Assembly: GCF_017876815.1 (NCBI RefSeq) | Contig: NZ_JAGIOS010000002.1 | Span: 480,001-512,000, forward strand | DNA: 32,000 nt | Reading direction: 5' to 3' | Source of the DNA: Sinorhizobium meliloti | GTDB taxonomy: Bacteria; Pseudomonadota; Alphaproteobacteria; Rhizobiales; Rhizobiaceae | Shown: positions 4,537 to 30,198 of the stretch, one piece after another | Layout of the letters: each line of letters opens with the position of its first letter | Numbering within the stretch: position 1 is the stretch's first letter | Program-made: the position numbers and the translations under genes | Notes under the pieces: model-generated | Seen by the model: the letters and a program-made list of their open reading frames with translations, nothing else | The model's database searches: none | Told to the model about the DNA's origin: nothing

Positions 4537-4899
4537 TCAGCCGACGAGCCAGAACAGCGCCGCGGCAATCAGAACGAACAATCCCACAGCGGCAAGGAAA
4601 CGCAGCGTGCCGGTGCTCGTATTGTCGCCGAGCACGCGATTCCAGTATTCGCCGCCAGTGGCGTCGTTCCCTTCGATGCCCGCTTCCGCAGGCGCATGCG
4701 TCGTCGCGACCTTTCCGTCGCCTGCACTGAAATTGCGCGGCTGCGGCTGTGGCGGGTCGGGGCGCGCCCGGTCCGCCTCGCCGAGATATGGCGCACCGCC
4801 TCCTGCATCGCCGGCATCGGCGACGTGATCGTCGGGCTCCGCACCACCGCCGGGAGCGAGACCAGTCCGGACCGGCATGCTTTCCTGTTTCCCCGCCAT
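4537..4899 (-). CDS. Hypothetical low-complexity protein with a C-terminal transmembrane anchor
   Basis: Internal ATG 4899-4897 (MAGKQESMPV...) is preceded by GGGAGG. The C-terminus LRFLAAVGLFVLIAAALFWLVG is a single TM segment. No family recognised. Confidence 0.5.
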   Translation of the reverse strand: MAGKQESMPVRTGLAPGGGAEPDDHVADAGDAGGGAPYLGEADRARPDPPQPQPRNFSAGDGKVATTHAPAEAGIEGNDATGGEYWNRVLGDNTSTGTLRFLAAVGLFVLIAAALFWLVG

Positions 4900-4914: not shown

Positions 4915-4948
4915 TGCGAAATGAGAAAGGGGGCGCCATCGCGCCCCC
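4915..4948 (-). terminator. GC-rich hairpin plus T-rich tail downstream of the CBS gene
   Basis: The minus strand reads GGGGGCGC-gatg-GCGCCCCC followed by TTTCTCATTTCGC. It lies 25 nt after the CBS stop (4973) and about 30 nt before the next start (4899). Confidence 0.5.
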
Positions 4949-5426: not shown

Positions 5427-5465
5427 CACGTTTCATCGGCACGTTTCATCGGCACGTTTCATCGG
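5427..5465 (-). repeat. Perfect 3 x 13-bp tandem direct repeat in the DUF2934-CBS intergenic leader
   Basis: The forward strand reads CACGTTTCATCGG three times (5427-5439, 5440-5452, 5453-5465). On the transcript this is CCGAUGAAACGUG x3, ending directly at the CBS Shine-Dalgarno sequence. Confidence 0.9.
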
Positions 5466-5499
5466 CGGCCCGGAATGCTCAAGCCGCCGTGACGGCCGC

Positions 5500-5814
5500 T
5501 CAGCGCCCACCGTCCGGGCGAGCCGCCGGATTTCCTTCGGGCGAAGCGGGTGCCCCAGCCCGCGCCGCGGTCTGCTTTTCGCGCCGCCTGCTGCCGTTGG
5601 CCTGGACCTCGCTCTCCGGCGCGGAGCCGTCTCTCTGCGTTTCCTGTCCTGGCATTTCCGGTCCCTGCATTTCCGGTCCCTGCATTTCTCTGGCCGCCTG
5701 CTCCCAGTGGCGCTGATGCTGCCCGTCCGGCCGTCCCTCCTGCTCCCAGATCGCATAGGCTCTGCGCCTGATGAGCTCTTCCCGTTCGTTGTCCATATCC
5801 CTTAGCTCGTCCAT
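5500..5814 (-). CDS. DUF2934 domain protein
   Basis: The N-terminal REELIRRRAYAIWEQEGRPDGQHQRHWEQAAREM matches the DUF2934 signature (RAYxxWExxGRPxGxxxxxW). AAGGGA precedes the ATG. An internal 15-bp tandem repeat (5652-5696) encodes EMQGP-EMQGP-EMPGQ. Confidence 0.8.
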   Translation of the reverse strand: MDELRDMDNEREELIRRRAYAIWEQEGRPDGQHQRHWEQAAREMQGPEMQGPEMPGQETQRDGSAPESEVQANGSRRREKQTAARAGAPASPEGNPAARPDGGR

Positions 5815-5856
5815 GTCCCTTACCTCGCCGCTGGACTTCGTTGATGGCGAGTTTCA

Positions 5857-5881
5857 AACGGCGCGACCGTCCATTTGTTCC
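5857..5881 (-). promoter_or_regulatory. EcfG-type (general stress ECF sigma) promoter, perfect GGAAC-N16-CGTT
   Basis: The minus strand reads GGAAC AAATGGACGGTCGCGC CGTT. The -10 element ends 43 nt upstream of the DUF2934 ATG (5814). Confidence 0.7.
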
Positions 5882-5907
5882 CCCCCGGCTAGATCCGCGC
5901 GGGACCT

Positions 5908-6072
5908 TCATATGTGCTTTGGCGGCTCCGGATTTTCGTCCGGATTAGGGACCGGAATTTCATCCGGAAGGCGGTCTGGATCAGGCTCTTCGATCGGCGG
6001 TTCCGGATACCATGGCGGCAAGTCCGGCGGCGGCGGCTCGGGTACTGGCACCGGCTGACGCGGGTTCGGCAT
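5908..6072 (-). CDS. 54-aa proline/acidic-rich microprotein (hypothetical)
   Basis: Internal ATG 6072-6070 is preceded by GGGAGA. The product is MPNPRQPVPVPEPPPPDLPPWYPEPPIEEPDPDRLPDEIPVPNPDENPEPPKHI. An EcfG-like motif lies upstream. The longer track ORF (to 6222) would run through its own putative promoter. Confidence 0.45.
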   Translation of the reverse strand: MPNPRQPVPVPEPPPPDLPPWYPEPPIEEPDPDRLPDEIPVPNPDENPEPPKHI

Positions 6073-6118
6073 TTTCGTCTCCCTTGAGCATGCGGGGGCG
6101 ACACCCCTCTTTCGGGAC

Positions 6119-6143
6119 AATCCCGACCGTGCGTGATTGTTCC
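6119..6143 (-). promoter_or_regulatory. EcfG-like promoter, GGAAC-N16-GATT
   Basis: The minus strand reads GGAAC AATCACGCACGGTCGG GATT, 47 nt upstream of ATG 6072. Confidence 0.45.
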
Positions 6144-6173
6144 GCCGCCGGCGCAGGGAACGGGGCGAAGCGC

Positions 6174-6199
6174 GGAACCCTTTGGGTCGATCGCGGGTT
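6174..6199 (+). promoter_or_regulatory. EcfG-like promoter, GGAAC-N17-GGTT
   Basis: GGAAC CCTTTGGGTCGATCGCG GGTT, 41 nt upstream of ATG 6240. It is divergent from the 6119-6143 motif. Confidence 0.45.
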
Positions 6200-6239
6200 T
6201 GACCCAACATCAGCAAGAGCAAAAGCCAGGAGAGAGCCC

Positions 6240-6983
6240 ATGCCCAGACATCCGGACTATGGCAGATACGATCCCTACGGCCGTCGCGATTGGGCCCGCC
6301 GCGACTGGGAGAACGAGCGCCACCGCGACCCTTACAACTATGGATCCGAGCGCCGCGGTCGGGCGCGCAGCCGCTTCGATGAGGATGTCGAGCCGCGTGG
6401 CGCCGACTACGAGAGCTCGATGTCGTGGCCGACCGGGAGCTACCGCGGCGGCGAAAGCGAACGCGAACGCTGGAACGACGACGACTACGATCGCAGGGGC
6501 CGCGAGCGTTATTTCAGGGATTATCACGGGCCCGGTTATGGCTATCGCGGCGAGGGCCGTTACCGCGGTTATGGAGGTTACGGCGAAACACGCGATTATC
6601 GCCGCGACCGCGATTTTCTCGACCGCGCCAGCGACGAGGTCGCTTCCTGGTTCGGTGACGAAGATGCCGAGCGCAGACGGGAGATGGACCGGCACCGGGG
6701 CAAGGGTCCGAAAGGCTACAGGCGCACCGACGGCCGCATCCAGGAAGATGTCAGCGACCGCCTGAGCGACGACGGCGCTCTCGACGCCTCCAACATCGAA
6801 GTGAGCGTGACGAACGGCGAAGTACAGCTCCACGGGTCGGTGAGCTCGAAATGGGCGAAACGCCGCGCCGAGGACTGTGCCGAAAACGTATCCGGGGTCA
6901 CGAATGTACAAAACAATCTGCGCATAGAGACGGCGGATACCGGCACTGTCCAGCAGAACCCGAACCTCACCGATCTTAGTTGA
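6240..6983 (+). CDS. SWFGD/BON domain protein with a disordered R/D/Y/G-rich N-terminal half (hydrophilin-like)
   Basis: ATG 6240 is preceded by AGGAGAGAG. The SWFGDEDAERRR motif is followed by KGPKGYRRTDGRIQEDV and a C-terminal BON-like segment (IEVSVTNGEVQLHGSVSSKWAKRRAEDCAENVSGVTNVQNNL). The track ORF start (6012) is upstream of the promoter motif and is unlikely. Confidence 0.8.
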   Translation: MPRHPDYGRYDPYGRRDWARRDWENERHRDPYNYGSERRGRARSRFDEDVEPRGADYESSMSWPTGSYRGGESERERWNDDDYDRRGRERYFRDYHGPGYGYRGEGRYRGYGGYGETRDYRRDRDFLDRASDEVASWFGDEDAERRREMDRHRGKGPKGYRRTDGRIQEDVSDRLSDDGALDASNIEVSVTNGEVQLHGSVSSKWAKRRAEDCAENVSGVTNVQNNLRIETADTGTVQQNPNLTDLS

Positions 6984-7061
6984 GGCGATTGCGTGCGTGC
7001 GAGCCGAGGAGCGCCGCGTAAGCTTGCGCGGCGTCTTTGCCTAGATCAGCGGAAGGCGCGC

Positions 7062-7083
7062 GGAAAACCGCACACACTTTTCC
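7062..7083. repeat. Dispersed intergenic repeat core (GGAAAACCGCACACACTTTTCC), with a second copy at 26788-26809 in opposite orientation
   Basis: The reverse complement of 26788-26809 is GGAAAACCGCTACACACGTTTC, which differs from 7062-7083 by one indel and one mismatch. Both copies are intergenic. Confidence 0.6.
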
Positions 7084-7152
7084 TCATCCCGCTCTTAGCT
7101 AAGGCCTATCGAGATACCGCGGCGGCTTGTTTGATTTCCTCATCCCTGTGCT

Positions 7153-7256
7153 CGTCACAGGGATCCAGCCAGACCAAGTCCTTGGGCTGAAACAACGCTT
7201 CCCGCGCCGCAGACGCGGCGCTGCTCTCATCTCTGTGACAAGCACAGAGATGAGAG
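7153..7256. repeat. RIME/REP-like mosaic of three palindromic hairpins between convergent genes
   Basis: ATCCCTGTG-ctcgt-CACAGGGAT (7153-7175), GCGCCGC-agac-GCGGCGC (7204-7221) and CTCTCATCTCTGTG-acaag-CACAGAGATGAGAG (7224-7256). The CCCTGTG..CACAGGGAT type palindrome is familiar from rhizobial intergenic mosaic elements, from memory and not verified. Confidence 0.55.
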
Positions 7257-7361
7257 CGAGGAGAAATTGCGCCCGGCTACCTTGTCCGCACCGCCCTACG
7301 CGTCGACAAAAGCAATCATCTTGAAGCAGCCGTCAAAACTCGAGATGAATCTCAACAGGCC

Positions 7362-8504
7362 TTAGCTGGAAGCTCGCCGCTCTTCTGCGACCGATTTTGC
7401 CTGCCGCGCCCTGGAGCGCGCCGAGCGCTGAAGAAAGCTCAGCAAGCGCTGTTCCTCCACACGCAGTTCGCTGTCCAAGCGCCCGCGCGCCTGAAGCTGC
7501 CGTGCCGAGATCGAGGCCGACTTGTCGGCGAGAGCGAGCACATCGGGATGAATGTAGCTGCTCCGGCTGATGGCGGGGGTGTTGTGAAGAACGGACGCAG
7601 CCGCTTCGCTCATCTGTTTGATCGTCGGCCACTCGCCCTGTTCGATCGAAGTCCGGGCGGCCGTGAAAGCCGCGAGAGTGCCGCCCCAGGTCCGGAATGT
7701 CTTTGCAGAAACCGCTGTTCCGGCCACATCTGAAAGGTACCGGTTGAGCCGCCCGGAATCGACCGGCCGCAGGACGTCGTTTTCATCCTTCCAAACGAAA
7801 AGCTGTCTGCCCGGCAGATCCGCGATCTCTTCGAGCAACTGCTGCAATTTGGGGCGGCGGAGCAGGCGCTGGACGCGCTTGCCGCCCTTGCCGATGAATT
7901 TCAGCTCTATGAAGCCATCGCCCAGCCTGAGATGCCGCTTCAGCAGCGTCGTGGCACCATAGCTCCCATTGGCCTGCACGTAAGCCTGGTTGCCGGTGCG
8001 CAGATGGGCTTCGTCCAGCAGGGCCACCAGCGCAGCGAGCACGGTTTGCATGTTTTCCACGTCGCCCTGCATGTGGCGCCGTATGGTGCGGCGTATCTTG
8101 GGCAATGCCTTGCCGAATTCCACCAGTTGCGCGAATTTGTCGGCGCTCCTGAGAGCCTGCCACTCGCTGTGATAGCGGTACTGTTTTCGTCCGCGCGCAT
8201 CGTAGCCCGTAGCCTGCAGATGCCCCCGTTCTTCGAGGCAGATCCAGACGTTGTCATAGGCAGGCGGCAGGCCCAGCGCCGCTATGCGGCTTTTGATCAA
8301 CGGATCGGTAACGATCGAGCCGTCCGGCATTCGGTAGACAAACCCCTTGCCACGCCTTTGCCGCCGGATGCCCGGTTCGCTGTCGCTGACATAGACGAGC
8401 CCGGTTTCCTCGGGCACGTGACCGGCCGCCGCCAGGTTCCGCGGACCATCCGCGATCACGCAAGGCGGACATTCGAGCACGTCGACCGACGTTGCTCTAG
8501 CCAT
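7362..8504 (-). CDS. Bacterial (poxvirus-like) type IB DNA topoisomerase
   Basis: Start taken at ATG 8504-8502 (MARATSV...), with GGAGGGAGG just upstream. Family-typical GLVYVSDSEPGIRRQRRGKGFVY, HLQATGYDARGRKQYRYH, KFIGKGGKRV, SAKTFRTWGGT and a C-terminal catalytic-Tyr context SRSSYIHPDV. The start overlaps the glgX stop by 8 nt. Confidence 0.85.
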   Translation of the reverse strand: MARATSVDVLECPPCVIADGPRNLAAAGHVPEETGLVYVSDSEPGIRRQRRGKGFVYRMPDGSIVTDPLIKSRIAALGLPPAYDNVWICLEERGHLQATGYDARGRKQYRYHSEWQALRSADKFAQLVEFGKALPKIRRTIRRHMQGDVENMQTVLAALVALLDEAHLRTGNQAYVQANGSYGATTLLKRHLRLGDGFIELKFIGKGGKRVQRLLRRPKLQQLLEEIADLPGRQLFVWKDENDVLRPVDSGRLNRYLSDVAGTAVSAKTFRTWGGTLAAFTAARTSIEQGEWPTIKQMSEAAASVLHNTPAISRSSYIHPDVLALADKSASISARQLQARGRLDSELRVEEQRLLSFLQRSARSRARQAKSVAEERRASS

Positions 8505-10593
8505 TGCCTCCCTCCTGCGGCACGAAGGCGACGACGCTCTGCGCCGGGATAGTGTTGCGATCCGCGCTGGCGCGCATGCCGAACGGTTCGTCGGCTGCCG
8601 TGTCGAGCACGCGTAGCCAGCGCCTGCTTCCATTTCCGTGGGGCAGGGCTATCTCGCAATCACCGCCGGCATTGAGCACGAGGACGATCTCGCCGGCCGG
8701 CGGAGCTTCGACCTGCCCGACACGGCAGATATAGGCGCAGATCAGGCGGAGCTCAGCGTCGTGCCAGGCGTCCTCGTCCATCGGGTTGCCATCCGCCTTG
8801 TACCAGGCGATTTCGACTCGTCCATTGTCGTCGGGCTCTCCGTCGAGGAATCGTTCCTGCCGCAGGACAGGATGGTCCTTGCGGAAGGCGAGGAGCTTTC
8901 GGCAGAAATCCACGAAGCCATCGTCCGCCCCGCTCCAATCGAGCCAACCGATCTCGTTATCCTGGCAATAGGCGTTGTTGTTGCCCTGCTGGCTGTTTCC
9001 CAGCTCGTCGCCGCCGAGCACCATCGGCACGCCCTGGCTGATCATCAGGGTGGCGAGCATGGCCGCCCGCCGTCGCTTGCGGGCCTCGATGATCTCTCCG
9101 TTGTCGGTTGGGCCTTCGGCGCCCATGTTGTCGGAATGATTGTCGGAGTGACCGTCCCGGTTCTCCTCGCCGTTCGCCTCGTTGTGCTTTTCGCCGTACG
9201 AGACCGTGTCTGTCAGGGTGAAGCCGTCATGGGCGCTTACCAGGTTGATCGACGAGGTCGCGGCACGATCCGAATGCCTGAACTGAACCGGCGAGCCGAG
9301 AATGCGCTCGGCAAGCACCGGAACCATGCCGCCATCTCCCTTCCAGAAGCGCCGGACATCGTCGCGGAACCGGTCGTTCCATTCGCGGAACGGCGGCGGG
9401 AAACCGCCGAGCTGATAGCCGCCCTCGCCGACGTCCCAGGGTTCGGCGATCAGCTTCACACCCGCCAGAATCGGATCCTGCCGGATCGCGTCGAAAAAGC
9501 CGCCTTCGCGATCGAACTCCATGTATTCGCGGCCGAGCGTGCTTGCGAGATCGAAGCGGAAGCCGTCGATATGCATCACGCCCACCCAGTAACGCAGGCT
9601 GTCGAAGACCATGCGCAGCACCAGGGGATGGGCAACATTGAGCGTGTTGCCGGTGCCCGTCGTGTCGTAGGTGTGGCGCGGCTTGTCCGGCGACTGGCGG
9701 TAATAGCTGAAATTGTCGAGCCCGCGGAAGCTCAAGGTCGGGCCGCGTTCCGAACCCTCGGCCGTATGGTTGTAGACGACATCCATCAGAACTTCGATGC
9801 CGGCGGAATGAAACCGCTTCACCATCGTCTTGAATTCGGTAAAGCGGTCGCCCTTGAGATAGCGCTCGTGGGGAGCGAAGAATCCGAGCGTCTGATATCC
9901 CCAATAATTTCTGAGGTTCCGCTCCACCAGGTAGCGGTCGTCGAGGAAATACTGCACCGGCATCAATTCGATCGCCGAAACGCCGAGCTTCGTCAAGTGC
10001 TCGATGATCGGATCGCTCGCCATGCCGAGAAACGTGCCACGCAGCTCGTCCGGCACGCCGGGATGCGTCATGGTCATGCCGCGGACATGCGCCTCGTAGA
10101 TGATCGTTTCGGTCCAGGGACGGCGGATCGCTTCTTCGCCCGCCCAGTCGAAAGTCGGGTCCTGAACGACGCCCTTTACCATGAAGGGGGCGCTGTCGCG
10201 CTCGTCGAAGGAAAGATCGCCCTCAGGGCTGCCGATCGTATAGCCGAAGAGGGCATCGTCCCAGATGAGCTCACCCGCGACCAGCTTGGCGTAGGGGTCG
10301 AGCAGCAGCTTGTTCGGATTGAAGCGGTGACCATTGTGCGGGTCGTAAGGTCCGTGGGCGCGGTAGCCATAGAGGGTGCCGGGACCGATACCCTCGATGT
10401 AACCGGACCAGATATCGCCCTCGCGCTTCGGCAGAGGCATACGCGCCGTTTCCTCGCGTCCATCCTCGGAAAACAGGCAGAGTTCGATCTTCTCCGCATG
10501 CGCCGAGAAGACCGCAAAATGCGTCCCCTGCCCGGTGTATTCTGCACCGAGTTCAGGTTTCATGAAATCGAGTTCTGAAAAAGTCAGGTTCAT
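8497..10593 (-). CDS. glgX: Glycogen debranching enzyme GlgX (GH13 isoamylase type)
   Basis: 698 aa. LGAEYTGQGTHFAVFSAHAEKIELCLF, YGYRAHGPYDPHNGHRFNPNKLLLDPYAK, VYNHTAEG, DGFRFDLAS, EPWD and VSAHDGFTL are the GH13 conserved regions. GAGGG precedes ATG 10593. Confidence 0.92.
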   Translation of the reverse strand: MNLTFSELDFMKPELGAEYTGQGTHFAVFSAHAEKIELCLFSEDGREETARMPLPKREGDIWSGYIEGIGPGTLYGYRAHGPYDPHNGHRFNPNKLLLDPYAKLVAGELIWDDALFGYTIGSPEGDLSFDERDSAPFMVKGVVQDPTFDWAGEEAIRRPWTETIIYEAHVRGMTMTHPGVPDELRGTFLGMASDPIIEHLTKLGVSAIELMPVQYFLDDRYLVERNLRNYWGYQTLGFFAPHERYLKGDRFTEFKTMVKRFHSAGIEVLMDVVYNHTAEGSERGPTLSFRGLDNFSYYRQSPDKPRHTYDTTGTGNTLNVAHPLVLRMVFDSLRYWVGVMHIDGFRFDLASTLGREYMEFDREGGFFDAIRQDPILAGVKLIAEPWDVGEGGYQLGGFPPPFREWNDRFRDDVRRFWKGDGGMVPVLAERILGSPVQFRHSDRAATSSINLVSAHDGFTLTDTVSYGEKHNEANGEENRDGHSDNHSDNMGAEGPTDNGEIIEARKRRRAAMLATLMISQGVPMVLGGDELGNSQQGNNNAYCQDNEIGWLDWSGADDGFVDFCRKLLAFRKDHPVLRQERFLDGEPDDNGRVEIAWYKADGNPMDEDAWHDAELRLICAYICRVGQVEAPPAGEIVLVLNAGGDCEIALPHGNGSRRWLRVLDTAADEPFGMRASADRNTIPAQSVVAFVPQEGGNG

Positions 10594-10634
10594 TCAGTCG
10601 CGCCCTCTACCGCCTTGCCCGGCAGCTTTGATGC

Positions 10635-10659
10635 AACGCGACGGGCAGGCATTTGTTCC
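10635..10659 (-). promoter_or_regulatory. EcfG-type promoter, perfect GGAAC-N16-CGTT, upstream of glgX-topIB
   Basis: The minus strand reads GGAAC AAATGCCTGCCCGTCG CGTT. The -10 ends 42 nt upstream of the glgX ATG (10593). Confidence 0.7.
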
Positions 10660-10680
10660 TCTCCCCGAACGGGTGCCGGG

Positions 10681-10706
10681 GGAACTTTCCCAGCCTTCGG
10701 CCAGTT
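10681..10706 (+). promoter_or_regulatory. EcfG-like promoter, GGAAC-N17-AGTT, upstream of treZ
   Basis: GGAAC TTTCCCAGCCTTCGGCC AGTT, 30 nt upstream of ATG 10736. It is back-to-back with the glgX promoter motif. Confidence 0.45.
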
Positions 10707-10735
10707 CCTCGCCTTTCATCTCGAGGGACATATCG

Positions 10736-12541
10736 ATGCCGGCAGGTTCGACGCGTGCACATTTCAGAAACAGCTGGGGCGCGAATTTCATCGACGGCGA
10801 CACATGCCGGTTTCGTTTGTGGGCTCCCGACGAGCGGGGCGTCGATCTGGTTCTCGGCGGCGCCGCGCATAAGATGCAGTCGCTCGACGGCGGCTGGTTC
10901 GAAATCACGCTCGCGGCGAAGGCGGGAGAGCGCTATTGCTTCCGCCTTGCCGACGGCACCAAGGTGGCCGATCCCGCCTCCTCGGCACAGGAGCGGGAAG
11001 CGTCGGGTACTTCGATCGTCGTCGATCACGCCGCCTATGAATGGCAGGCTTTCTCCTGGCGCGGCAGGCCCTGGGAGGAGGCGGTCATTTCGGAGTTGCA
11101 TGTCGGCTGCTTCACGCCGGAGGGCACCTTCCGCGCTGCAATCGAGCGCTTGCCGCATCTGGCAGAGGCCGGAATCACTGCGATCGAGATCATGCCCGTC
11201 GCGCAATTCCCCGGTGTGCGGGGCTGGGGCTACGACGGCGTGCTGCACTATGCTCCGCACAATGCCTACGGGAAGCCGGATGACCTGAAGGCGCTCGTGG
11301 ATGCGGCCCATTCGCTGGGTCTGACGGTCCTGCTCGATGTCGTTTACAACCACTTCGGCCCGGAGGGGAATTATCTTTCGCGCTATGCGAGCCGCTTCTT
11401 CAACAAGGATCGCCCGACACCGTGGGGGGCGTCGATCGCCTTCGAGGAGGAAGCGGTCCGGCGCTATTTCATCGAGAACGCGCTCTACTGGCTCGGCCAT
11501 TTCCGTTTCGACGGATTGCGTCTCGATGCGACCGAACAGATCCGCGATACGACCAAGCCGCATTTTCTCGTCGCGCTGGAGCACGAGCTTCGGCACACGT
11601 TCGCCGAGCGGCAAATCCACCTGGTGCTGGAAGACGCTCACCGCCGCAGAAGCCTTCTGCAGCGCGACGCGAGCGGCGCGCGCATGCTTTTCGATGCGGC
11701 ATGGAACGACGATCTTCACAATGCCCTCCACGTCGTGGCGACCGGCGAAACCAAGGGCCACTATCGCCTTTTCGCGGACGAGCCCTGGGGCAAGATCCGC
11801 AACGCGCTGACCGAAGGCTTCGCCGTGCCGGCAAAGGAGGACAATTTCTCTCCTGAGGGGAGCCGAGCCCGCGTGCCGCCGCAAGGCCGCGTGAATTTCC
11901 TGCAGAACCACGACCAGATCGGCAACCGCGCCTTCGGCGAACGTCTCGCCTCGCTCCTCCAGGAGGACAGCCTGCGCGTGTTGGCGGCCATGCACATGCT
12001 GACGCCGCAAATCCCTCTCCTGTTCATGGGTGAAGAATACGGCGAGACGCAGCCCTTCTTTTTCTTCTCCGACTACCAGGGGGAAATAGCCGAGGCTATC
12101 CGGCTGGGACGCCGGGACGAAGCCGAAAATTTCGGCGGCCTTCCAGAGGGCAAGACGATGGATGATCTGCCCGATCCGCTCGACCCGGACGTCTTTGCCG
12201 GTTCGAAGCTACGTTGGAACCGCGCGACAAGCCCTGCCGGCGAGCGGCATCTTGCCTATATGCGCGACCTCGCCGGGATAAGGCAGCGGCACATCGTACC
12301 GCTGATCGCCGGCACCGCCGTACCGGATGGCCGTGCATACGAGACCAAGGACGGCATCATCGCTGTCGACTGGCAGTTCGGGGAGGCTTGCCTGGAATTG
12401 CGCGTCAATCTTTTGCACGAGACACACGCCGTACCCGCAATACGCGGTCAGCCGATCTTCGCGAGCGAAACGTCCGGTGTCGAGACCGTCTACGGCAGCG
12501 AGTTGGCCGGCCCTGGCATCGTCGTCGCCATTGCACGGTGA
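10736..12541 (+). CDS. treZ: Malto-oligosyltrehalose trehalohydrolase TreZ (GH13)
   Basis: ATG 10736 is preceded by GAGGGA. HFRNSWGANFIDGDTCRFRLWAP is a typical TreZ N-terminus. Also VYNHFGPEGNYL, DGLRLDATEQI, VLEDA and NHDQIGNRAFGERL. Confidence 0.9.
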   Translation: MPAGSTRAHFRNSWGANFIDGDTCRFRLWAPDERGVDLVLGGAAHKMQSLDGGWFEITLAAKAGERYCFRLADGTKVADPASSAQEREASGTSIVVDHAAYEWQAFSWRGRPWEEAVISELHVGCFTPEGTFRAAIERLPHLAEAGITAIEIMPVAQFPGVRGWGYDGVLHYAPHNAYGKPDDLKALVDAAHSLGLTVLLDVVYNHFGPEGNYLSRYASRFFNKDRPTPWGASIAFEEEAVRRYFIENALYWLGHFRFDGLRLDATEQIRDTTKPHFLVALEHELRHTFAERQIHLVLEDAHRRRSLLQRDASGARMLFDAAWNDDLHNALHVVATGETKGHYRLFADEPWGKIRNALTEGFAVPAKEDNFSPEGSRARVPPQGRVNFLQNHDQIGNRAFGERLASLLQEDSLRVLAAMHMLTPQIPLLFMGEEYGETQPFFFFSDYQGEIAEAIRLGRRDEAENFGGLPEGKTMDDLPDPLDPDVFAGSKLRWNRATSPAGERHLAYMRDLAGIRQRHIVPLIAGTAVPDGRAYETKDGIIAVDWQFGEACLELRVNLLHETHAVPAIRGQPIFASETSGVETVYGSELAGPGIVVAIAR

Positions 12542-12560
12542 CACGCCATCGGCAGACAGT

Positions 12561-12585
12561 GGAACATGCCCTGAGCCTCACGGTT
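12561..12585 (+). promoter_or_regulatory. EcfG-like promoter, GGAAC-N16-GGTT, upstream of the UdgX-like gene
   Basis: GGAAC ATGCCCTGAGCCTCAC GGTT in the 86-nt treZ-udgX gap, 43 nt upstream of ATG 12628. Confidence 0.5.
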
Positions 12586-12627
12586 AGACATCGCGGCGAG
12601 AACAAAGAGGGAGAGTCTCGAGGAACG

Positions 12628-13269
12628 ATGCCGAAACAGCTTGCGAACCTTGGCCCGGCCCTTGCCGGCGAACACGCCGAGGCAACGACGATTGCCTCTC
12701 TGCGGCGGCAGGCGGAGGGGTGCGAGCGCTGCGACCTCTACAAGAACGCTACGCAACTGGTCTTCGGCGAGGGTCCGGTCGACGCCCGTGTCGTGCTCGT
12801 CGGCGAACAGCCCGGCGACCGCGAGGACCTTGCCGGGCGCCCGTTCGTCGGACCCGCCGGGCGCATCCTGGACGAGTGCCTGCACGAAGCCGGCATCGAC
12901 CGGTCGGAATGCTATCTCACCAATGCCGTTAAACACTTCAAATTCGAACAGCGCGGCAAGCGCCGAATGCATTCGCGGCCGAACGCCGGTGAGATTCAGG
13001 CCTGCGCCTGGTGGCTCGGCGCCGAACTCGATGAGCTCCGCCCCGAAATCGTCGTCGCGCTCGGGGCAACGGCGCTGATGTCCCTGCTCGGGCGAAGCGT
13101 GGGTGTCACCAGGAACCGCGGCCAGCTTCTGACGGCCCCCGGGGGCTTCTCCGTGCTCGTGACCATCCACCCCTCCTATCTTCTGAGAATCCGAGGCCGA
13201 TCCGACCCCGAAGCGGAACGCGCCCGGTTTGTCGACGATCTCGCTAAGGTGGCGACTCGCATCGGTTGA
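12628..13269 (+). CDS. udgX: Family-4-related uracil-DNA glycosylase of the UdgX type (GEQPG motif plus KRRMH loop)
   Basis: ATG 12628 is preceded by GAGGAA. Fe-S cysteines are present (CERCDL, ECYLTN, QACAW). Motif A is LVGEQPGDRED..GRPFVGPAG and motif B is IHPSYLLR. The insertion NAVKHFKFEQRGKRRMHSRP corresponds to the KRRIH loop that defines M. smegmatis UdgX. Confidence 0.8.
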   Translation: MPKQLANLGPALAGEHAEATTIASLRRQAEGCERCDLYKNATQLVFGEGPVDARVVLVGEQPGDREDLAGRPFVGPAGRILDECLHEAGIDRSECYLTNAVKHFKFEQRGKRRMHSRPNAGEIQACAWWLGAELDELRPEIVVALGATALMSLLGRSVGVTRNRGQLLTAPGGFSVLVTIHPSYLLRIRGRSDPEAERARFVDDLAKVATRIG

Positions 13270-13273
13270 CCGG

Positions 13274-13996
13274 TCAGGACTGCCGGTCGAGTTCCGGATA
13301 GTGGCGGAAGACGCAGGATTCGTTGAAGGCAAGCCGCCGCTCCGAGGCCAGATAGCTCAGAATTCTCGGCCGTGCACGAACGGCATCGTGCAAGGCGACC
13401 AGTCCGGGAATGTTTGTCTCATAGGCATCCATCGCCTTGGGAAAGGCATAGCGAAGTCCTTCGATCACCTGGAAAAGCGAAAGATCGACGTAGCTCAGCC
13501 GGTCCCCGACCATATGTTCCGGGCCCCTGGGATTTTGTGTGAGCACGCGTTCGAAATAGCCGAAAAACTTCGGCAGGCGCTCCGAGAGGAAATCGGCCGA
13601 CCGCCTCAGCGCTTCAGGCTTCTGGTCCTCATAATAGAGCGACAAGGCGACCGGATGGTGCGTGTCGTGAATCTCCGCGACGAAGTCGGTGATCGTCAGC
13701 TGCAGACCATTGGTGAGGGTTCGAAGCCTCTCGTCCTCAGCAACGAGGCCGAGCCTCGGCCCGAGATAAAAAAGTATGTTGGCGACGTGGCTTATGACGA
13801 GGTCGCCATCGATGAGGAACGGGGGAGCGAAGGGAGCGGCGGCTTCACCGGGCATCTTCATCAGCTTCAGCATTTCATTCGTGCCGCCCGGCTGGCGGGC
13901 AATGTCGAGGTAATCCGCGCCGGCCTCCTCCAGCGCAAGGCGCACGAATTCACCTCGACCGGGAATGCCGTCCCAGTAATAGAGCTTGTATGGCAT
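13274..13996 (-). CDS. Glutathione S-transferase family protein
   Basis: Internal ATG 13996-13994 (MPYKLYYWDGIPGRGEFVRLALEEAGADY...). GST N-terminal thioredoxin-like and C-terminal helical pattern (SYVDLSLFQVIEGL). Confidence 0.8.
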   Translation of the reverse strand: MPYKLYYWDGIPGRGEFVRLALEEAGADYLDIARQPGGTNEMLKLMKMPGEAAAPFAPPFLIDGDLVISHVANILFYLGPRLGLVAEDERLRTLTNGLQLTITDFVAEIHDTHHPVALSLYYEDQKPEALRRSADFLSERLPKFFGYFERVLTQNPRGPEHMVGDRLSYVDLSLFQVIEGLRYAFPKAMDAYETNIPGLVALHDAVRARPRILSYLASERRLAFNESCVFRHYPELDRQS

Positions 13997-14189
13997 GAAA
14001 GGTCCCCTTCTTTGCCAGCATTCATCTTGGTTCGCCGCCGAAGTCTTTTCCTGGCTCGTTCTCGCCTTTCGCGAACCCCCGTGCTCCGAGCTATCTTCTT
14101 GTATCGGCACGATTGAAGGAAAAATACAGCCGCGGAATTCGTTCCGGTTCGGCAGGGAAACAGAACATCCTGCGTCGAGGAGAAAACCA

Positions 14190-14729
14190 ATGAAAATCGA
14201 AGAGCTCATGTTCGCCGAAAGCGGCGGCGTACCAAACAACCCGCGCCTGCCGGTCCTGGTCTATCGTCAAGCGATCGACGTTACGGAAAATGGAGCCACA
14301 CGGATAGAGGAAAGCTTCAGGGCCAATGGTTGGCGCGGCCTGTGGCGCGACGGCGTCTTTGCCCATCACCATTACCATTGCGGTGCGCACGAGGTTCTCG
14401 GGATCGCGGAAGGCCGGGCACGGCTGCTGATCGGAGGGCCGGACGGTCAGGAGGTCGAGGTCGCTGCCGGCGACGCCATCCTCCTCCCCGCGGGTACGGG
14501 CCACCGCCGGAACGAAGCAAGCGTGGATTTCCTGGTCGTCGGCGGCTATCCGCCGGGGCAGGACGCCGGGATTCAGAGCGGCGCCGCGACCGCGGATGAC
14601 CGTGAGGCGATCGTCTCGGTGCCGCTGCCGAGCCTTGACCCCATTCTCGGCGCCGAGGGACCTGCGGTCACGGTCTGGCAGTCCGCCATGCATGCGGAAC
14701 GCGGTCTCGGCGAACGACAGGGCCACTGA
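14190..14729 (+). CDS. Cupin domain protein (YjlB-like)
   Basis: ATG 14190 is preceded by GGAGAA. HHHYHCGAHEVLGIAEGRARLLIGG...GDAILLPAGTGH is a cupin two-motif pattern. Confidence 0.7.
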   Translation: MKIEELMFAESGGVPNNPRLPVLVYRQAIDVTENGATRIEESFRANGWRGLWRDGVFAHHHYHCGAHEVLGIAEGRARLLIGGPDGQEVEVAAGDAILLPAGTGHRRNEASVDFLVVGGYPPGQDAGIQSGAATADDREAIVSVPLPSLDPILGAEGPAVTVWQSAMHAERGLGERQGH

Positions 14730-14745
14730 TCACTCGCCGCAATCG

Positions 14746-14961
14746 TCAGCGCAGCCAGACGGGGAGATCGGCGGCCGTGCGGCAGCCCGCTGGCCGCTCT
14801 TTCAGTCCCAATTTTTCCCAGGCGAATTTCTGGGCCGCGACCTGTGCCATTTCCTTGGTCTCGTAGATGTCCGGCAGCACATATGCCTTACGGCCACACG
14901 ACAGGAGCGCCCTGTGACTCAGCAGATCGTAGTGAAGCTCGAGGTATTCTTCGGAATGCAT
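14746..14961 (-). CDS. 71-aa hypothetical protein
   Basis: Internal ATG 14961-14959 (MHSEEYLELHYDLL...) is preceded by GGGAGGG. A perfect EcfG motif lies 27 nt upstream. Confidence 0.5.
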   Translation of the reverse strand: MHSEEYLELHYDLLSHRALLSCGRKAYVLPDIYETKEMAQVAAQKFAWEKLGLKERPAGCRTAADLPVWLR

Positions 14962-14987
14962 GGAACCCTCCCAGGTGGCGAGAGGAA

Positions 14988-15012
14988 AACGGCGGCCGTC
15001 GCGGGAAGTTCC
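14988..15012 (-). promoter_or_regulatory. EcfG-type promoter, perfect GGAAC-N16-CGTT
   Basis: The minus strand reads GGAAC TTCCCGCGACGGCCGC CGTT, 27 nt upstream of ATG 14961. Confidence 0.65.
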
Positions 15013-15053
15013 ATGAAGCCCGCCGATTGCTGGGATGGCAAGGGCTGCCCGAC

Positions 15054-15078
15054 GGAACATAGACGTCGCTTCCGAGTT
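15054..15078 (+). promoter_or_regulatory. EcfG-like promoter, GGAAC-N16-AGTT
   Basis: GGAAC ATAGACGTCGCTTCCG AGTT, 25 nt upstream of ATG 15103 and 41 nt from the divergent 14988-15012 motif. Confidence 0.5.
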
Positions 15079-15102
15079 GATGACGCTTACGGGAGGTCAG
15101 TC

Positions 15103-15438
15103 ATGAGCACGAACAAGCATGGAGAACCGCGCCCGGGGGCTGATGCGCGCCCGCTCGATCCCCCGAGCGTCGACGAGCCGATCGACGCATGGGGGCGAGA
15201 TCGGAAGAGCGCGCCAGAGGTCGGAAACCAACTCGACGAACTGCGCGAGCGGATCGCCCGGCTTCAAGCCGAAATCGACGCCATCGCAACCGAGACCCAC
15301 ACGGCCGTCGGCACCGTGCCCGGAGCCGACAGGCTCGAAACAGCGAGAGACGTGGTTGCCGAAAAGCGCGACGAGATCAAGCGCCTGACGGCGCGTCTCG
15401 AAGAGATCGAGCGGACGCTTGGCGGCAGCGCCGCCTAG
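15103..15438 (+). CDS. 111-aa hypothetical protein with a predicted coiled-coil C-terminal half
   Basis: ATG 15103 is preceded by GGGAGG. Heptad-like LDELRERIARLQAEIDAIATE...EKRDEIKRLTARLEEIERTL. Confidence 0.6.
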   Translation: MSTNKHGEPRPGADARPLDPPSVDEPIDAWGRDRKSAPEVGNQLDELRERIARLQAEIDAIATETHTAVGTVPGADRLETARDVVAEKRDEIKRLTARLEEIERTLGGSAA

Positions 15439-15448
15439 TTTACTCGAT

Positions 15449-15625
15449 CTAAAACACGGTCATCCACACGCCGCGCCAGAAAAGCGAGTTCGGGTCATCG
15501 AGGCGTTCGCAATCGTCCGTCGCAGGCTTCCTGATCTTTGCAGATGCCGGCTTGCGGTCGTTTGCGGGAGGGACAGGGCGCCCTTCGCGTTCCGTCGCGG
15601 GCTCCGGTTTTTTGATCGTTAGCAT
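15449..15625 (-). CDS. Possible unannotated 58-aa ORF (below the track cutoff)
   Basis: My translation from ATG 15625-15623 reads MLTIKKPEPATEREGRPVPPANDRKPASAKIRKPATDDCERLDDPNSLFWRGVWMTVF, ending at TAG 15451-15449. AAGGA lies about 9 nt upstream. Third codon positions are GC-rich. It is on the same strand and downstream of 15705..15974. Confidence 0.3.
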   Translation of the reverse strand: MLTIKKPEPATEREGRPVPPANDRKPASAKIRKPATDDCERLDDPNSLFWRGVWMTVF

Positions 15626-15704
15626 CGCGAGATCCTTTCCGCCGTAAAGGCGTTTCCGGCCTCAAGTGCTCCTTCCGCTTCCGTCTCCGAGTTCCTTCTT
15701 CGGT

Positions 15705-15974
15705 TCAGTGCCGGTGAATGAATTTACAGAACCGGCTGGGTTGCCCGTCGTCAGTCATGTCCTGATGGAGGAAAGCCAGATTCTCCTCGTCGAAGATCTT
15801 GAAGAATTCGTCCCAGGAAATTTTCTCCAGCGTGTCTTCCGGCTTGCCGAAATCAACGCGGAGGAGACCACCACCGTCTTCGGTCGCGCCCTTCACGCGC
15901 GCCGGCTGTCCTTTGCGGGCCTCTATCCAATTGCGGATTGTGTCGTGGTCGATCGTAGTCATCGCAGCGGTCAT
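15705..15974 (-). CDS. 89-aa conserved hypothetical stress-type protein
   Basis: ATG 15974-15972 (MTAAMTTIDHDTIRNWIEARKGQPARVKG...ISWDEFFKIFDEENLAFLHQD) has GGAG 6 nt upstream. I recall this sequence type as a widespread uncharacterised small protein. Confidence 0.65.
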   Translation of the reverse strand: MTAAMTTIDHDTIRNWIEARKGQPARVKGATEDGGGLLRVDFGKPEDTLEKISWDEFFKIFDEENLAFLHQDMTDDGQPSRFCKFIHRH

Positions 15975-16068
15975 CGGAAACTCCATGAACTGGGATGCCG
16001 GAGGCGCCTCGAGCGCCATCTTCAGCGGCAGGGAACGCGGTGTGCCCTCACCGCGCCCTAGCTGTGTA

Positions 16069-16093
16069 AATCGATCGCTGCGCTTATTGTTCC
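16069..16093 (-). promoter_or_regulatory. EcfG-like promoter, GGAAC-N16-GATT
   Basis: The minus strand reads GGAAC AATAAGCGCAGCGATC GATT, 95 nt upstream of ATG 15974 and immediately after the DUF763 stop. Confidence 0.4.
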
Positions 16094-16096
16094 GCC

Positions 16097-17238
16097 TTAG
16101 CGCCGCGCGCGGTCGCCTGGCACCGCGGCGGTTGCCTCGTCGTCGTGCGGTTCCCAGCCGAATATGCTGCGCCCGCCGAAACGCGCGGAGTCCCTGAATT
16201 CGCCCGCGACGATCTCCTTGAGGTCGGGGCCCGTGACGTAGCGCTCCAGCCGGCGCGACTGCTCGTCGAGCCGCTTCAGCGCCGCAAGCTCTTCCTGGCG
16301 CCCGAGGCGGCCCTTGCTGACCGCTGATTTCATGATCCTGATCGTCTCGTCATAGACTTTCAACGGCACCGGGAACGGATGGCGGTCCTTGCCGCCATGG
16401 GCGAGCGAAAAGCGGGCGGGGTCCGAGAACCTGCATGGCGTCCCGTGGACCACCTCCGCGACCATCGCCAGCGCCTTGACCGTCCGCGCGCCGACGCCTG
16501 GCACCAGCAGCAGGTCCTTGAAGTCCTCCGGACCACGGTCGGCGGCGGCGGCGAAGTTGCCGTGAAGGCGCCGGAGATTGACGTCGCTTTCGCGCACGTC
16601 GTGATGGGTGGGCATGAAGAGATGAGGCAGCATCGGCTGTGCCAGCGCGGCCACAGGAGCCCCACGAGACTCGACCCGGGCGACCTCGCGCAGGAGCCCG
16701 TCGGGCCCGAGGGACTGGAGGAGATCCAGCTGCGCAGTCCGCGAGGCGGCGGCGCGGCGGTCGGCAAGATTGACGATCTCGCCCTGTTCTCTGCCTTCAA
16801 TCGCGCTATGCGGCGCGTCGACGAAGCTTGTCAGGCCCTCCGAGAGCCAGTGATAGCGCCTCGCCTGCCGGCGGTCGCCGTTCATGCCCTGCTGGACGAC
16901 CACCCACCTGGCATCGTCCGTGACGATGAAACCGTGCAGGTAGAGATCGAAGCCGTCCTGAACGGCGGCACTGTCGACCTTGGCGACGAGGCGGCTCGCT
17001 TCTGCCAATGCGCCGCCGTCGAAACCGACGCGATCGCCAATCGACACGAGTTCGCCCGGCGTCTTGCGGGAGTGCTGGCCGCGGCCGCCGCAGACATGGA
17101 TGCCCAGCTCGCCGGCAACCGGGGTGAGACCACGTTTCAACGCACCGATGACGCTCGTGGTGATACCGGAGGAATGCCAGTCCATGCCCATGACGGCACC
17201 GAAGGACTGGAACCAGAACGGATGCGCAAGCCGCCTTA
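16097..17238 (-). pseudogene. DUF763 protein, C-terminal ~380 codons, separated from its N-terminus by an IS insertion
   Basis: RLAHPFWFQSFGAVMGMDWHSSGITTSVIGALKRGL... matches DUF763 as I recall it. It contains an HhH-like motif, LLLVPGVGARTVKALAMVAE. The reading frame continues artefactually into the IS end (track ORF 16097..17536). Confidence 0.8.
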
Positions 17239-18171
17239 GAGTCGGACTCGAAAAGGTTTCAACGATATCCATATCTTGCAAGGCGTCTGGTGAGCATGCG
17301 GATGTGAGCGATGGTGATCCACGCTTCTGCTGAAGCGACGGATTTTTCGAAGTCCTTGGCCAGTCTGCGGCATCGACCCAGCCAGGCGAAGGTCCGCTCG
17401 ACGACCCAGCGGCGCGGCAGGATTTCAAAACCCTTGGCCTTGTCGGAACGTTTGATGATTTCGAGTGTCCATTTCCCGATTTTCTGCAGCCGCTTTTTGA
17501 GCTTGTCGCCCGCATAGCCGCCATCAGCGAAGACATGAAGCAACCACGGCCACCGGTTTTTGATGGATTTCAGGAGATCGGGAGCGCCGTCGCGATCCTG
17601 AATATCGGCGCTGTGCACCATGAGGCCGACCATCAGCCCGAGCGTGTCGACAATGATGTGGCGCTTGCGGCCCTTAATCTTCTTGCCTGCATCAAAGCCA
17701 CGGATACCGCCGCTTTCCGTCGTTTTAACGCTTTGGCTGTCGATCGCGCCCGCTGTCGGCGAGGCTTCTTTCCCCTCCAATTCCCGCGCCTCCATGACGA
17801 GGTGATGGTTGATCCGTGGCCAAAGACCCATTGCCCGCCATTCATAGAAATATCGCTGCACCGTCGAACAGGGCGGAAAGTCCTTCGGCAGCATCCGCCA
17901 CTGGCAGCCTGTCGAAGCGATATAGAGAAGGGCGTTTAAAACATCGCGCAAATCAGTCTTGCGCGGACGACCCAGACGCCGTGGCGCAGGCATGAACGGT
18001 GCAACAAAATCCCATTCGCGATCCGTGACATCGCTTGCATATCCGCTCGTCCGCCGGACATAATTGCGCCGGGTGGTTTCAGTCCAGGCCATCGTGATCT
18101 CCATCGAATCTTTGCAAATCCGACGGAATCACAACTGGCTGAAATCACTCAATTCTTTTTGAGGCAGCCTC
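17239..18171 (-). mobile_element. IS5-family insertion sequence, 933 bp, with a 3-bp TTA target duplication
   Basis: The ends are GAGTCGGACTCGAAAAGG (17239-) and the reverse complement of the right end, GAGGCTGCCTCAAAAAGA (-18171), matching at 13 of 18 positions. TTA is present at 17236-17238 and 18172-18174. It carries a single DDE transposase ORF. Size and the TNA duplication resemble the IS1031/IS427 subgroups (inference). Confidence 0.85.
17259..18092 (-). CDS. IS5-family DDE transposase
   Basis: MAWTETTRRNYVRR...DREWDFVAPFMP...GRPRKTDLRDVLNALLYIASTGCQWRMLPKDFPP..TVQRYFYEW...IDSQSVKT...VFADGGY...RWVVERTFAWL. GGAG lies 8 nt before ATG 18092. The track start at 18104 is an alternative. Confidence 0.9.
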   Translation of the reverse strand: MAWTETTRRNYVRRTSGYASDVTDREWDFVAPFMPAPRRLGRPRKTDLRDVLNALLYIASTGCQWRMLPKDFPPCSTVQRYFYEWRAMGLWPRINHHLVMEARELEGKEASPTAGAIDSQSVKTTESGGIRGFDAGKKIKGRKRHIIVDTLGLMVGLMVHSADIQDRDGAPDLLKSIKNRWPWLLHVFADGGYAGDKLKKRLQKIGKWTLEIIKRSDKAKGFEILPRRWVVERTFAWLGRCRRLAKDFEKSVASAEAWITIAHIRMLTRRLARYGYR

Positions 18172-19058: not shown

Positions 19059-19202
19059 TGCGACCTCCTACTCTAACGATAGTTGGTCCCCCAATTTCCA
19101 CCTCGTAGGCCTGATCAGCGTGACTCCAACCGGTCGGGAAGTCCAATCACGAAAATAGATCATGCCAAATTTGGCGCATGACGTTGCCCGCCGCGGCGGT
19201 CG

Positions 19203-29942: not shown

Positions 29943-30198
29943 GAACTCAGGCACCGGCTGATATCTCGCTATCGGGTTTCAGGTACATACGGCCCTTCTC
30001 TCTTGCTGCGCCGCCGAACACCGGAGATCGGCCATCCGCATCGACGCTTTTTGTCGCACTGTCTGGATCGTGCCGGCTCATACTTCGAAAGCTCGCAAGG
30101 AAAAGTTGTTCCCCGAAATACAATGATGTACGCCAAACTTGCTTAATTGACTACCGATCAATGCGAATCCCGCGCTTTGCCGCCGGCAGTCGGCGCCA

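Follow-up and report, generated by a model that had tools for sequence, protein, structure and literature searches.

The window analyzed here, a stretch of 32,000 nucleotides (nt) of Sinorhizobium meliloti DNA, holds within about 10 kb nine intergenic motifs that match the promoters of RpoE2, the EcfG-type sigma factor of the general stress response. The 11 kb around these motifs are 99.9% identical to the S. meliloti pSymB record CP140948, with which they align end to end, and pSymB of S. meliloti strain 1021 (approximately 1,366,000-1,397,000) is 98.2% identical to the window. The window is part of the megaplasmid pSymB and carries genes SMb21441 to SMb21456; the promoter cluster is its SMb21441-SMb21454 segment.

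Gene coordinates were taken from the Prokaryotic Genome Annotation Pipeline (PGAP) annotation of the near-identical CP140948 and converted to window positions. From the CBS-domain gene to the DUF763 gene (window 4973 onward), the annotated genes bear the strain 1021 names SMb21441 to SMb21455. The genes are listed below with the evidence for each; array values are signal log ratios on rpoE2 overexpression (Schlueter 2013, PMC3616915).

4973-5413, minus strand: CBS-domain gene SMb21441 (PGAP; array 3.68)
5500-5814, minus strand: DUF2934 gene SMb21442 (PGAP, Pfam DUF2934; array 4.44)
5908-6072, minus strand: proline-rich open reading frame (ORF) of 54 residues, the C-terminal part of the old SMb21443 (translation; without PGAP annotation)
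6240-6983, plus strand: BON-domain (OsmY-like) gene SMb21444 (Pfam BON, E = 2e-19; array 4.22)
7362-8504, minus strand: DNA topoisomerase IB gene SMb21445 (PGAP; array 3.48)
8497-10593, minus strand: glgX, SMb21446 (PGAP; array 3.81)
10736-12541, plus strand: treZ, SMb21447 (NCBIfam TreZ, 718 bits, above cut-off; array 5.55)
12628-13269, plus strand: udgX, SMb21448 (NCBIfam UdgX, 291 bits, above cut-off; array 3.26)
13274-13996, minus strand: glutathione S-transferase (GST) gene SMb21449 (PGAP; array 2.57)
14190-14729, plus strand: cupin gene SMb21450 (PGAP; array 2.61)
14746-14961, minus strand: SMb_ORF_15, 71 residues (PGAP; array 4.23, from the intergenic probe set that detects it)
15103-15438, plus strand: SMb21452, 111 residues, coiled-coil-like (PGAP; array 4.60)
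15705-15974, minus strand: SMb21454, 89 residues (PGAP; array 2.87)
from 16097, minus strand: DUF763 gene SMb21455 (PGAP)

DUF2934, BON, DUF763, TreZ and UdgX all exceed the curated cut-offs of Pfam or NCBIfam, and the glgX and topoisomerase IB genes overlap by 8 nt.

Motif counts and placement

A sequence-only reading of this DNA had picked out nine EcfG-type motifs by eye, three perfect and six varying in the -10 element, and exact searches together with a weight matrix recovered all nine where they had been placed. The perfect form GGAAC-N16-17-CGTT occurs three times in the window, each time as GGAAC-N16-CGTT and at exactly the positions read (5857-5881, 10635-10659 and 14988-15012, all on the minus strand), against 0.48 expected from dinucleotide shuffles. 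With the first base of the -10 element left free (GGAAC-N16-17-NGTT) the count is eight against 1.26 expected, and no shuffle reached eight. The two GATT variants on the minus strand, 6119-6143 and 16069-16093, were seen in the sequence and recovered by the weight matrix.

The matrix was trained on 88 start-site-mapped RpoE2 promoters (Schlueter 2013, Tables S19 and S20, PMC3616915), from which promoters of the region under study were left out to avoid circularity; the training set has a median of 16.7 bits and a 10th percentile of 13.6 bits. The nine motifs score 13.4-19.9 bits. Eleven sites in the window reach 13 bits, where 1.93 are expected; 0 of 300 dinucleotide shuffles give as many, and 10 of the 11 fall in 5800-16150. 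Seven sites score at least 16 bits (0.37 expected), all of them between 5.8 and 16.1 kb. Placement is strongly biased: of the 11 sites that reach 13 bits, 10 lie wholly in intergenic DNA, which makes up 12.7% of the window (binomial P = 1e-8). All nine motifs are intergenic, and each faces a start codon that lies 23-93 nt past the -10 hexamer, in line with the 25-95 nt first estimated, and the extension GGAACAA is present in four of them, as had been noted. Together with the GST site described below, the nine fit the architecture of RpoE2, an extracytoplasmic function sigma factor of group ECF15: a GGAAC -35 element and a (C)GTT or TT -10 element, 16-17 nt apart. The strict S. meliloti RpoE2 form is GGAAC-N18-19-TT. 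The sites are as follows.

5856-5881, minus strand: promoter of the DUF2934-CBS operon (SMb21442-SMb21441), GGAACAA-N13-CCGTTT, 19.9 bits
6118-6143, minus strand: promoter of the proline-rich ORF (old SMb21443), GGAACAA-N13-GGATTG, 16.5 bits
6174-6200, plus strand: promoter of the BON gene SMb21444, GGAACCC/TTTGGGTCGATCGC/GGGTTT, 13.4 bits
10634-10659, minus strand: promoter of the glgX-topoisomerase IB operon (SMb21446-SMb21445), GGAACAA/ATGCCTGCCCGTC/GCGTTG, 19.8 bits
10681-10707, plus strand: promoter of treZ (SMb21447), 14.8 bits
12561-12586, plus strand: predicted promoter of udgX (SMb21448), GGAACAT-N13-CGGTTA, 16.3 bits
14118-14145 (minus-strand reading 14120-14145): site shared by the GST gene SMb21449 (minus) and the cupin gene SMb21450 (plus), 9.9 bits on the minus and 10.7 bits on the plus strand
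14987-15012, minus strand: promoter of SMb_ORF_15, 18.8 bits
15054-15079, plus strand: promoter of SMb21452, 17.7 bits
16068-16093, minus strand: predicted promoter of SMb21454, GGAACAA-N13-CGATTT, 16.5 bits

Outside the cluster, a site of 14.9 bits (GGAACAA-N13-GCTTTC, 30087-30112, minus strand) is intergenic and lies upstream of the type I secretion gene prsD. A site of 10.8 bits (GGAAATT-N13-TCGTTA, 19074-19099, minus strand), also outside it, stands directly before SMb21456, which has been used as a known RpoE2 target (Lang 2018, PMC6180224).

Published start sites and expression

The start sites and expression values used here are published data for strain 1021 rather than measurements on the window strain. 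Promoter boxes are identical between the two strains at all nine motifs, the -10 element of the GST/cupin site being the sole exception, and on the strength of this identity we infer that the 1021 results would hold in the window strain.

Table S19 of Schlueter 2013 (PMC3616915) gives RNA-seq start sites at 1372300 for SMb21444, 1376743 for SMb21446, 1376831 for SMb21447 and 1381207 for SMb21452, which correspond to window positions 6209, 10626, 10714 and 15089, and prints RpoE2 promoters for all four with the same sequences as in the window. The start of SMb_ORF_15 at 1381097 (window 14979) was found by RNA-seq and by rapid amplification of cDNA 5' ends (5'-RACE) and is rpoE2-dependent (Tables S20 and S21, PMC3616915). 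Table 1 of Lang 2018 (PMC6180224) lists the SMb21442-SMb21441 promoter, with its sequence, among RpoE2/RpoE6 targets, and the start site of this promoter apparently maps to window 5848. All published starts mapped to the window, including that of the GST gene at 14113 and the apparent one at 5848, lie 7-10 nt after the -10 hexamer, within the 5-10 nt that the sequence-only reading had set as a test and the 5-11 nt expected of this promoter class. For six of the nine sites, then, an RpoE2 call and an RNA-seq or 5'-RACE start are on record, with coordinates or sequence in print.

The seventh is 6119-6143. In Table S18 of the same study (PMC3616915), the old SMb21442 and SMb21443 ORFs each have one start site, internal, sense and assigned to RpoE2. 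On the minus strand inside these ORFs the RpoE2-like sites are 5856-5881 and 6118-6143 only, so 6119-6143 is also backed by a start site, known as a count in Table S18 without coordinates, and both old ORFs were annotated too long. The sequence-only reading had pointed this motif at a proline-rich microprotein; the direction stands, and the target is now defined as the 54-residue C-terminal part of old SMb21443.

On rpoE2 overexpression, SMb21441-21450, SMb21452 and SMb21454 rise with signal log ratios of 2.57-5.55, or about 6- to 47-fold (Schlueter 2013, PMC3616915), old SMb21443 among them at 2.98, and induction of cluster genes was seen again in Lang 2018 (PMC6180224). Start-site support thus covers seven of the nine sites and expression support all nine. 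A sigma-70 scan found no sigma-70-like promoter in the intergenic regions of the cluster, which suggests that the cluster is probably nearly silent without RpoE2.

Predicted promoters of udgX and SMb21454

The udgX and SMb21454 sites are inferred to be promoters from score, placement and conservation, as is the cupin reading described below. On rpoE2 overexpression, SMb21448 shows a signal log ratio of 3.26 and a logFC of 2.87 (Lang 2018, PMC6180224), and SMb21454 a signal log ratio of 2.87 and a logFC of 3.10, with 2.47 for a minus-strand intergenic probe. Several Rhizobium have a udgX site of 14-18 bits 22-63 nt upstream of the gene, as do Ensifer sp. USDA 6670, S. medicae, E. aridi, S. fredii, S. 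americanum, S. psoraleae and Sinorhizobium sp. CB7. In L027 and L037, both from Rhizobium, udgX is divergent from treZ and the two have back-to-back sites, so read-through from treZ cannot explain udgX transcription there. At SMb21454, GGAACAA with a -10 element of CGATT(T/A) type is kept in six species, and E. adhaerens also has a site.

A site readable on both strands between the GST and cupin genes

All nine motifs of the sequence-only reading proved valid, but it had overlooked a tenth site, the published GST promoter at 14120-14145 on the minus strand. SMb21449 has a start site at 1380230, window 14113, with an RpoE2 promoter (Schlueter 2013, Table S19, PMC3616915). In strain 1021 this promoter, GGAACGA-N13-ATGTTT, reads GAAACAT-N13-TCGTTC on the opposite strand, and that second reading stands 38-45 nt ahead of the cupin start codon. 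A GAAAC -35 element is found in five of the 88 training promoters, and the GST and cupin genes are induced alike on rpoE2 overexpression (2.57 and 2.61). The window strain carries one G>T change, by which the GST -10 element becomes ATTTTT and the -35 element of the other strand GAAAAAT; this weakens both readings relative to strain 1021, Ensifer sp. USDA 6670 and S. medicae; the site scores 14-15 bits in two related loci (L004 and L005) as against 9.9 (minus) and 10.7 (plus) in the window.

The treZ element (10681-10708) is palindromic, GGAAC...GTTCC, and its minus-strand reading scores 13.0 bits. Because GGAAC is the reverse complement of GTTCC, an element of the form GGAAC-N-GTTCC can be read on both strands. 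We considered and rejected the idea that such palindromes form an enriched special class, since they make up about 5% of the sites in related loci, roughly what chance would give from the composition of the -10 element. Perfectly palindromic sites also occur in L042 (17292-17318) and L046 (9443-9470). Symmetric bidirectional promoters arising from sigma-70 -10 elements were reportedly described by Warman et al. in 2021. Like these, the treZ and GST/cupin elements are readable on both strands; they differ in that the sigma factor here is of ECF type and the two-way use is predicted from sequence. Searches of full-text literature found nothing relevant joining EcfG to bidirectional promoters.

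Conservation across relatives

We compared 80 loci around relatives of glgX, 45 of Rhizobiaceae type and 35 others, mostly Rhodobacterales. For seven promoters in six Sinorhizobium/Ensifer species, identity to the window is 96% for the boxes, 59% for the spacers and 37% for the 20 nt upstream; the box value arises partly by construction, as sites were picked by score, and the informative point is that a high-scoring site stands in the same place in every species. Site density per 10 kb is 3.63 in the Rhizobiaceae-type loci and 0.69 in the control loci, against 0.60 expected from shuffles; the control loci, whose glgX is 55-61% identical, are thus at background.

Of the 45 Rhizobiaceae-type loci, 44 retain the glgX-topoisomerase IB site with a score of 17-20 bits and a diverging spacer, and the 5856-5881 site is kept in nearly all Rhizobiaceae loci. 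Conservation extends to eight other species for the SMb_ORF_15 site, to Sinorhizobium species for the treZ site, and to Ensifer sp. USDA 6670 and S. medicae for 6118-6143. Gene order is common to Sinorhizobium, Rhizobium and Shinella, with gains and losses; E. aridi, S. fredii and S. americanum lack the BON gene and the topoisomerase IB gene. Some relatives are much denser in sites around glgX than S. meliloti: in 22 kb, about 24 sites of at least 13 bits are found in S. psoraleae (L009), about 20 in E. adhaerens (L046) and 15 in Ensifer sp. LCM 4579 (L042).

Cluster density in the strain 1021 genome

Cluster density was counted from 95 published RpoE2 promoters with RNA-seq start sites across the strain 1021 genome. 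The densest 10-kb stretch of that genome is the SMb21441-SMb21454 cluster, with six mapped RpoE2 promoters; the next densest, at the rpoE2 locus and the rsiB2 locus, have four each. Random placement reached six promoters in 10 kb in 2 of 20,000 trials. The term "stress island", which the sequence-only reading had used, is therefore fair in a regulatory sense, as the densest mapped RpoE2 promoter cluster in the genome; in the sense of horizontal acquisition it does not hold, given the flat G+C content and the lack of a tRNA gene discussed below.

Weighing the alternatives

We conclude, with a probability of about 0.93, that the nine motifs are RpoE2 (EcfG-type) general-stress promoters and that the cluster consists of about nine units, each with its own RpoE2 promoter. 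Several points weigh against this conclusion. The experiments were all done in strain 1021, from which the window strain differs by 1.8% and by a mutated GST/cupin site. Table S18 gives zero start sites for udgX, SMb21454 and the cupin gene, and the published tables compared here hold none for them. As udgX begins 86 nt past treZ with no predicted terminator between them, read-through could account for its induction. Finally, overexpression of RpoE6 raises SMb21442 and SMb21441 by log2 2.0 and 1.4 (Lang 2018, PMC6180224), so that sigma specificity is not absolute.

We give almost no credence to the idea that the motifs are chance or compositional matches in G+C-rich DNA without promoter function. 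The core motif is short, with nine fixed bases, and a 13.7-bit site inside the topoisomerase IB coding sequence (7695-7721) shows that chance-level matches do occur, but the excess over shuffles, the concentration of sites in intergenic DNA, the published starts exactly 7-10 nt downstream of the -10 element and the retention of sites across genera while their flanks diverge all speak otherwise; start-site maps and statistics together already refute it. Very improbable, too, is that the promoters are served mainly by RpoE5 (ECF15) or RpoE6 (ECF26), with RpoE2 acting indirectly through a cascade. It is true that rpoE5 is activated by RpoE2, that the RpoE6 consensus resembles that of ECF15 and that RpoE6 lifts the two genes just named; yet overexpression of RpoE5 yields a single target, outside the region, while the effects of RpoE6 are smaller than those of RpoE2 and, within the cluster, are on record for no more than SMb21442, SMb21441 and the intergenic probe next to them, and on the RpoE2 matrix the sites score at the training median. 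A narrower objection concerns 12561-12586 and 16068-16093, which might not be promoters at all, udgX being transcribed by read-through from treZ and SMb21454 from a start elsewhere. The zero starts in Table S18 for SMb21448 and SMb21454 and the 86-nt treZ-udgX gap without a terminator-like hairpin fit this view, which we nevertheless consider unlikely: the two sites score about the training median, six Sinorhizobium/Ensifer species have both at the equivalent place, the -10 element varying by gene (CGGTTA-type at udgX, CGATT(T/A)-type at SMb21454), udgX is divergent from treZ with back-to-back sites in L027 and L037, and by the shuffle rate a stretch of 280 nt has a chance of about 0.01 of holding, on any one strand, a site that reaches 13 bits.

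A last rival is that the cluster is a horizontally acquired genomic island that happened to bring stress genes along. Its location on a megaplasmid, a gene content that varies by species (BON and topoisomerase IB missing in some) and an insertion sequence (IS) close by in the window strain would suit such an origin. The IS, the only mobile element, has 931 bp (17240-18170), belongs to the IS4/IS5 family and splits the DUF763 gene SMb21455; it encodes, on the minus strand, a transposase of 281 residues (DDE_Tnp_1 and DUF4096), and a 5-bp CTTAG duplication flanks it. Neither strain 1021 nor any of the best-matching pSymB records carries this IS; it is strain-specific and lies outside the cluster. 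G+C content stays flat, at 0.62-0.64 both inside the region and in the flanking DNA, no tRNA gene was found and no integrase gene is annotated, and the core gene order is common to Sinorhizobium, Rhizobium and Shinella. With typical base composition and no tRNA or integrase gene at a border, we rejected horizontal acquisition as highly unlikely.

The proline-rich ORF and other features of the window

The ORF at 5908-6072 on the minus strand (MPNPRQPVPVPEPPPP...; MPNPRQPVPVPEPPPPDLPPWYPEPP...) has a reading frame that S. medicae and S. fredii retain, with insertions and deletions that stay in frame and an excess of third-position changes; the exact 54-residue sequence is absent from a collection of 15 billion proteins. 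Pfam and NCBIfam returned no family for the proteins of 54, 71, 89, 120 and 145 residues, and SMb21452 has weak coiled-coil-type Pfam matches only, each under the cut-off. Rfam at gathering scores found no RNA family in the whole window. Many 425-residue DUF763 proteins, products of the neighboring gene, share a 90%-identity protein cluster with the 89-residue SMb21454; this mixture is probably a clustering artefact or a fused gene call.

A strong terminator-like hairpin follows the CBS gene, as given by a terminator scan:

4929-4948: terminator-like hairpin, strong, 3' of the CBS gene

Downstream of the CBS gene, PGAP annotates a hypothetical protein of 120 residues with a hydrophobic C-terminus (4537-4899, minus strand). 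The strain 1021 "intergenic" probe set over this gene rises by 3.0 on rpoE2 overexpression, and the stress transcript may thus run past the hairpin. Between the DUF2934 and CBS genes lies a perfect 13-nt tandem repeat, CACGTTTCATCGG, of 3.1 copies (5427-5466); a 13-nt shift of alignment coordinates across it suggests a copy shorter by one unit in strain ml59. At 5635-5688, a 15-nt repeat codes for the EMQGP repeats found in the DUF2934 protein. The 380 nt that separate the BON gene from the topoisomerase IB gene hold hairpin-forming inverted repeats at 7223-7257 and 7140-7175, with a perfect inverted repeat of 15-nt arms among them. These hairpin repeats presumably resemble the short interspersed repeats of Sinorhizobium.

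Discussion

The cluster and most of its promoters were mapped and published between 2007 and 2018, and what the sequence-only reading offered is a correct rediscovery of something already known. The RpoE2 regulon of S. meliloti is said to have been described by Sauviac in 2007. The published regulon of strains 1021/2011 (PMC3616915, PMC3738161, PMC6180224) has the same replicon, genes SMb21441-SMb21454 and promoter boxes; apart from its 98.2% identity, strain 1021 differs from the window strain in having the GST/cupin base intact and a DUF763 gene without an IS. The assignment of the motifs to the EcfG/RpoE2 type is borne out by the 1021 start sites and promoter calls, by induction on rpoE2 overexpression and by conservation.

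On the best-supported reading, the cluster works as about nine transcription units, mostly of one or two genes, each driven by its own RpoE2 (ECF15) promoter. Such a promoter comprises a -35 element GGAAC(A/T/C)N, a free spacer of 13-14 nt and a -10 element NNGTTN or NNATTN, with transcription starting 7-10 nt further on. Divergent promoters stand back to back as three pairs (6118/6174, 10634/10681 and 14987/15054), and the GST and cupin genes may be served by a single two-strand site. The PhyR-type proteins RsiB1 and RsiB2 are phosphorylated in response to heat, salt, oxidative stress or starvation and bind the NepR-type anti-sigma factors RsiA1 and RsiA2 (PMC3616915). RpoE2 freed from RsiA1/RsiA2 would then take RNA polymerase to the sites of the cluster. 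The genes for RpoE2, RsiA1/2 and RsiB1/2 are chromosomal in S. meliloti (PMC3616915) and lie outside the window. The products would contribute to making trehalose from glycogen and maltooligosaccharides (GlgX and TreZ) and to DNA transactions (topoisomerase IB and UdgX), alongside typical stress proteins (BON, CBS, DUF2934, GST and cupin) and several small proteins; treZ is a recognized trehalose-synthesis gene of S. meliloti.

A related system is found in Sphingomonas melonis Fr1, whose EcfG promoters (GGAAC-N17-20-GTT) share the GGAAC -35 and GTT -10 architecture (PMC6599016). That study describes EcfG motifs enriched within 100 nt of start codons and places topoisomerase IB, GlgX and TreZ among the top EcfG-dependent genes, which agrees with the view, already taken from gene content, that the cluster fits a general-stress regulon. 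The S. melonis glgX and treZ motifs, as given there, score poorly (5.1 and 3.0), whereas the units of the window each have a strong site within about 10 kb, and the passages compared mention no comparable dense promoter clustering (PMC6599016).

A tentative idea, which we think possible but doubtful, is that in Sinorhizobium/Ensifer the stress regulon was gathered under selection, for co-transfer or for coordinated firing, into promoter-dense arrays of single-gene units around glgX-treZ. Such arrays may hold about one EcfG-type promoter per 1-2 kb, with single-gene units that each keep their own promoter instead of forming operons, and the units may extend to the proline-rich 54-residue protein, a separate udgX promoter that would link the uracil-DNA-binding protein UdgX with the stress response, and the two-way GST/cupin site.

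These results show that RpoE2-class promoters can be read correctly from raw sequence. To the published picture they make small additions, namely the conservation of the udgX and SMb21454 promoters, the mutated two-way GST/cupin site, an unannotated proline-rich ORF and the denser arrays of relatives, and further, by a count of published start sites, the rank of this cluster as the densest RpoE2 cluster of the genome. A conserved proline-rich small ORF is missing from the current annotation. Full-text literature searches found nothing relevant tying UdgX to the alphaproteobacterial general stress response, and the link between stress response, topoisomerase IB and UdgX seen here may be a useful lead to the role of UdgX.

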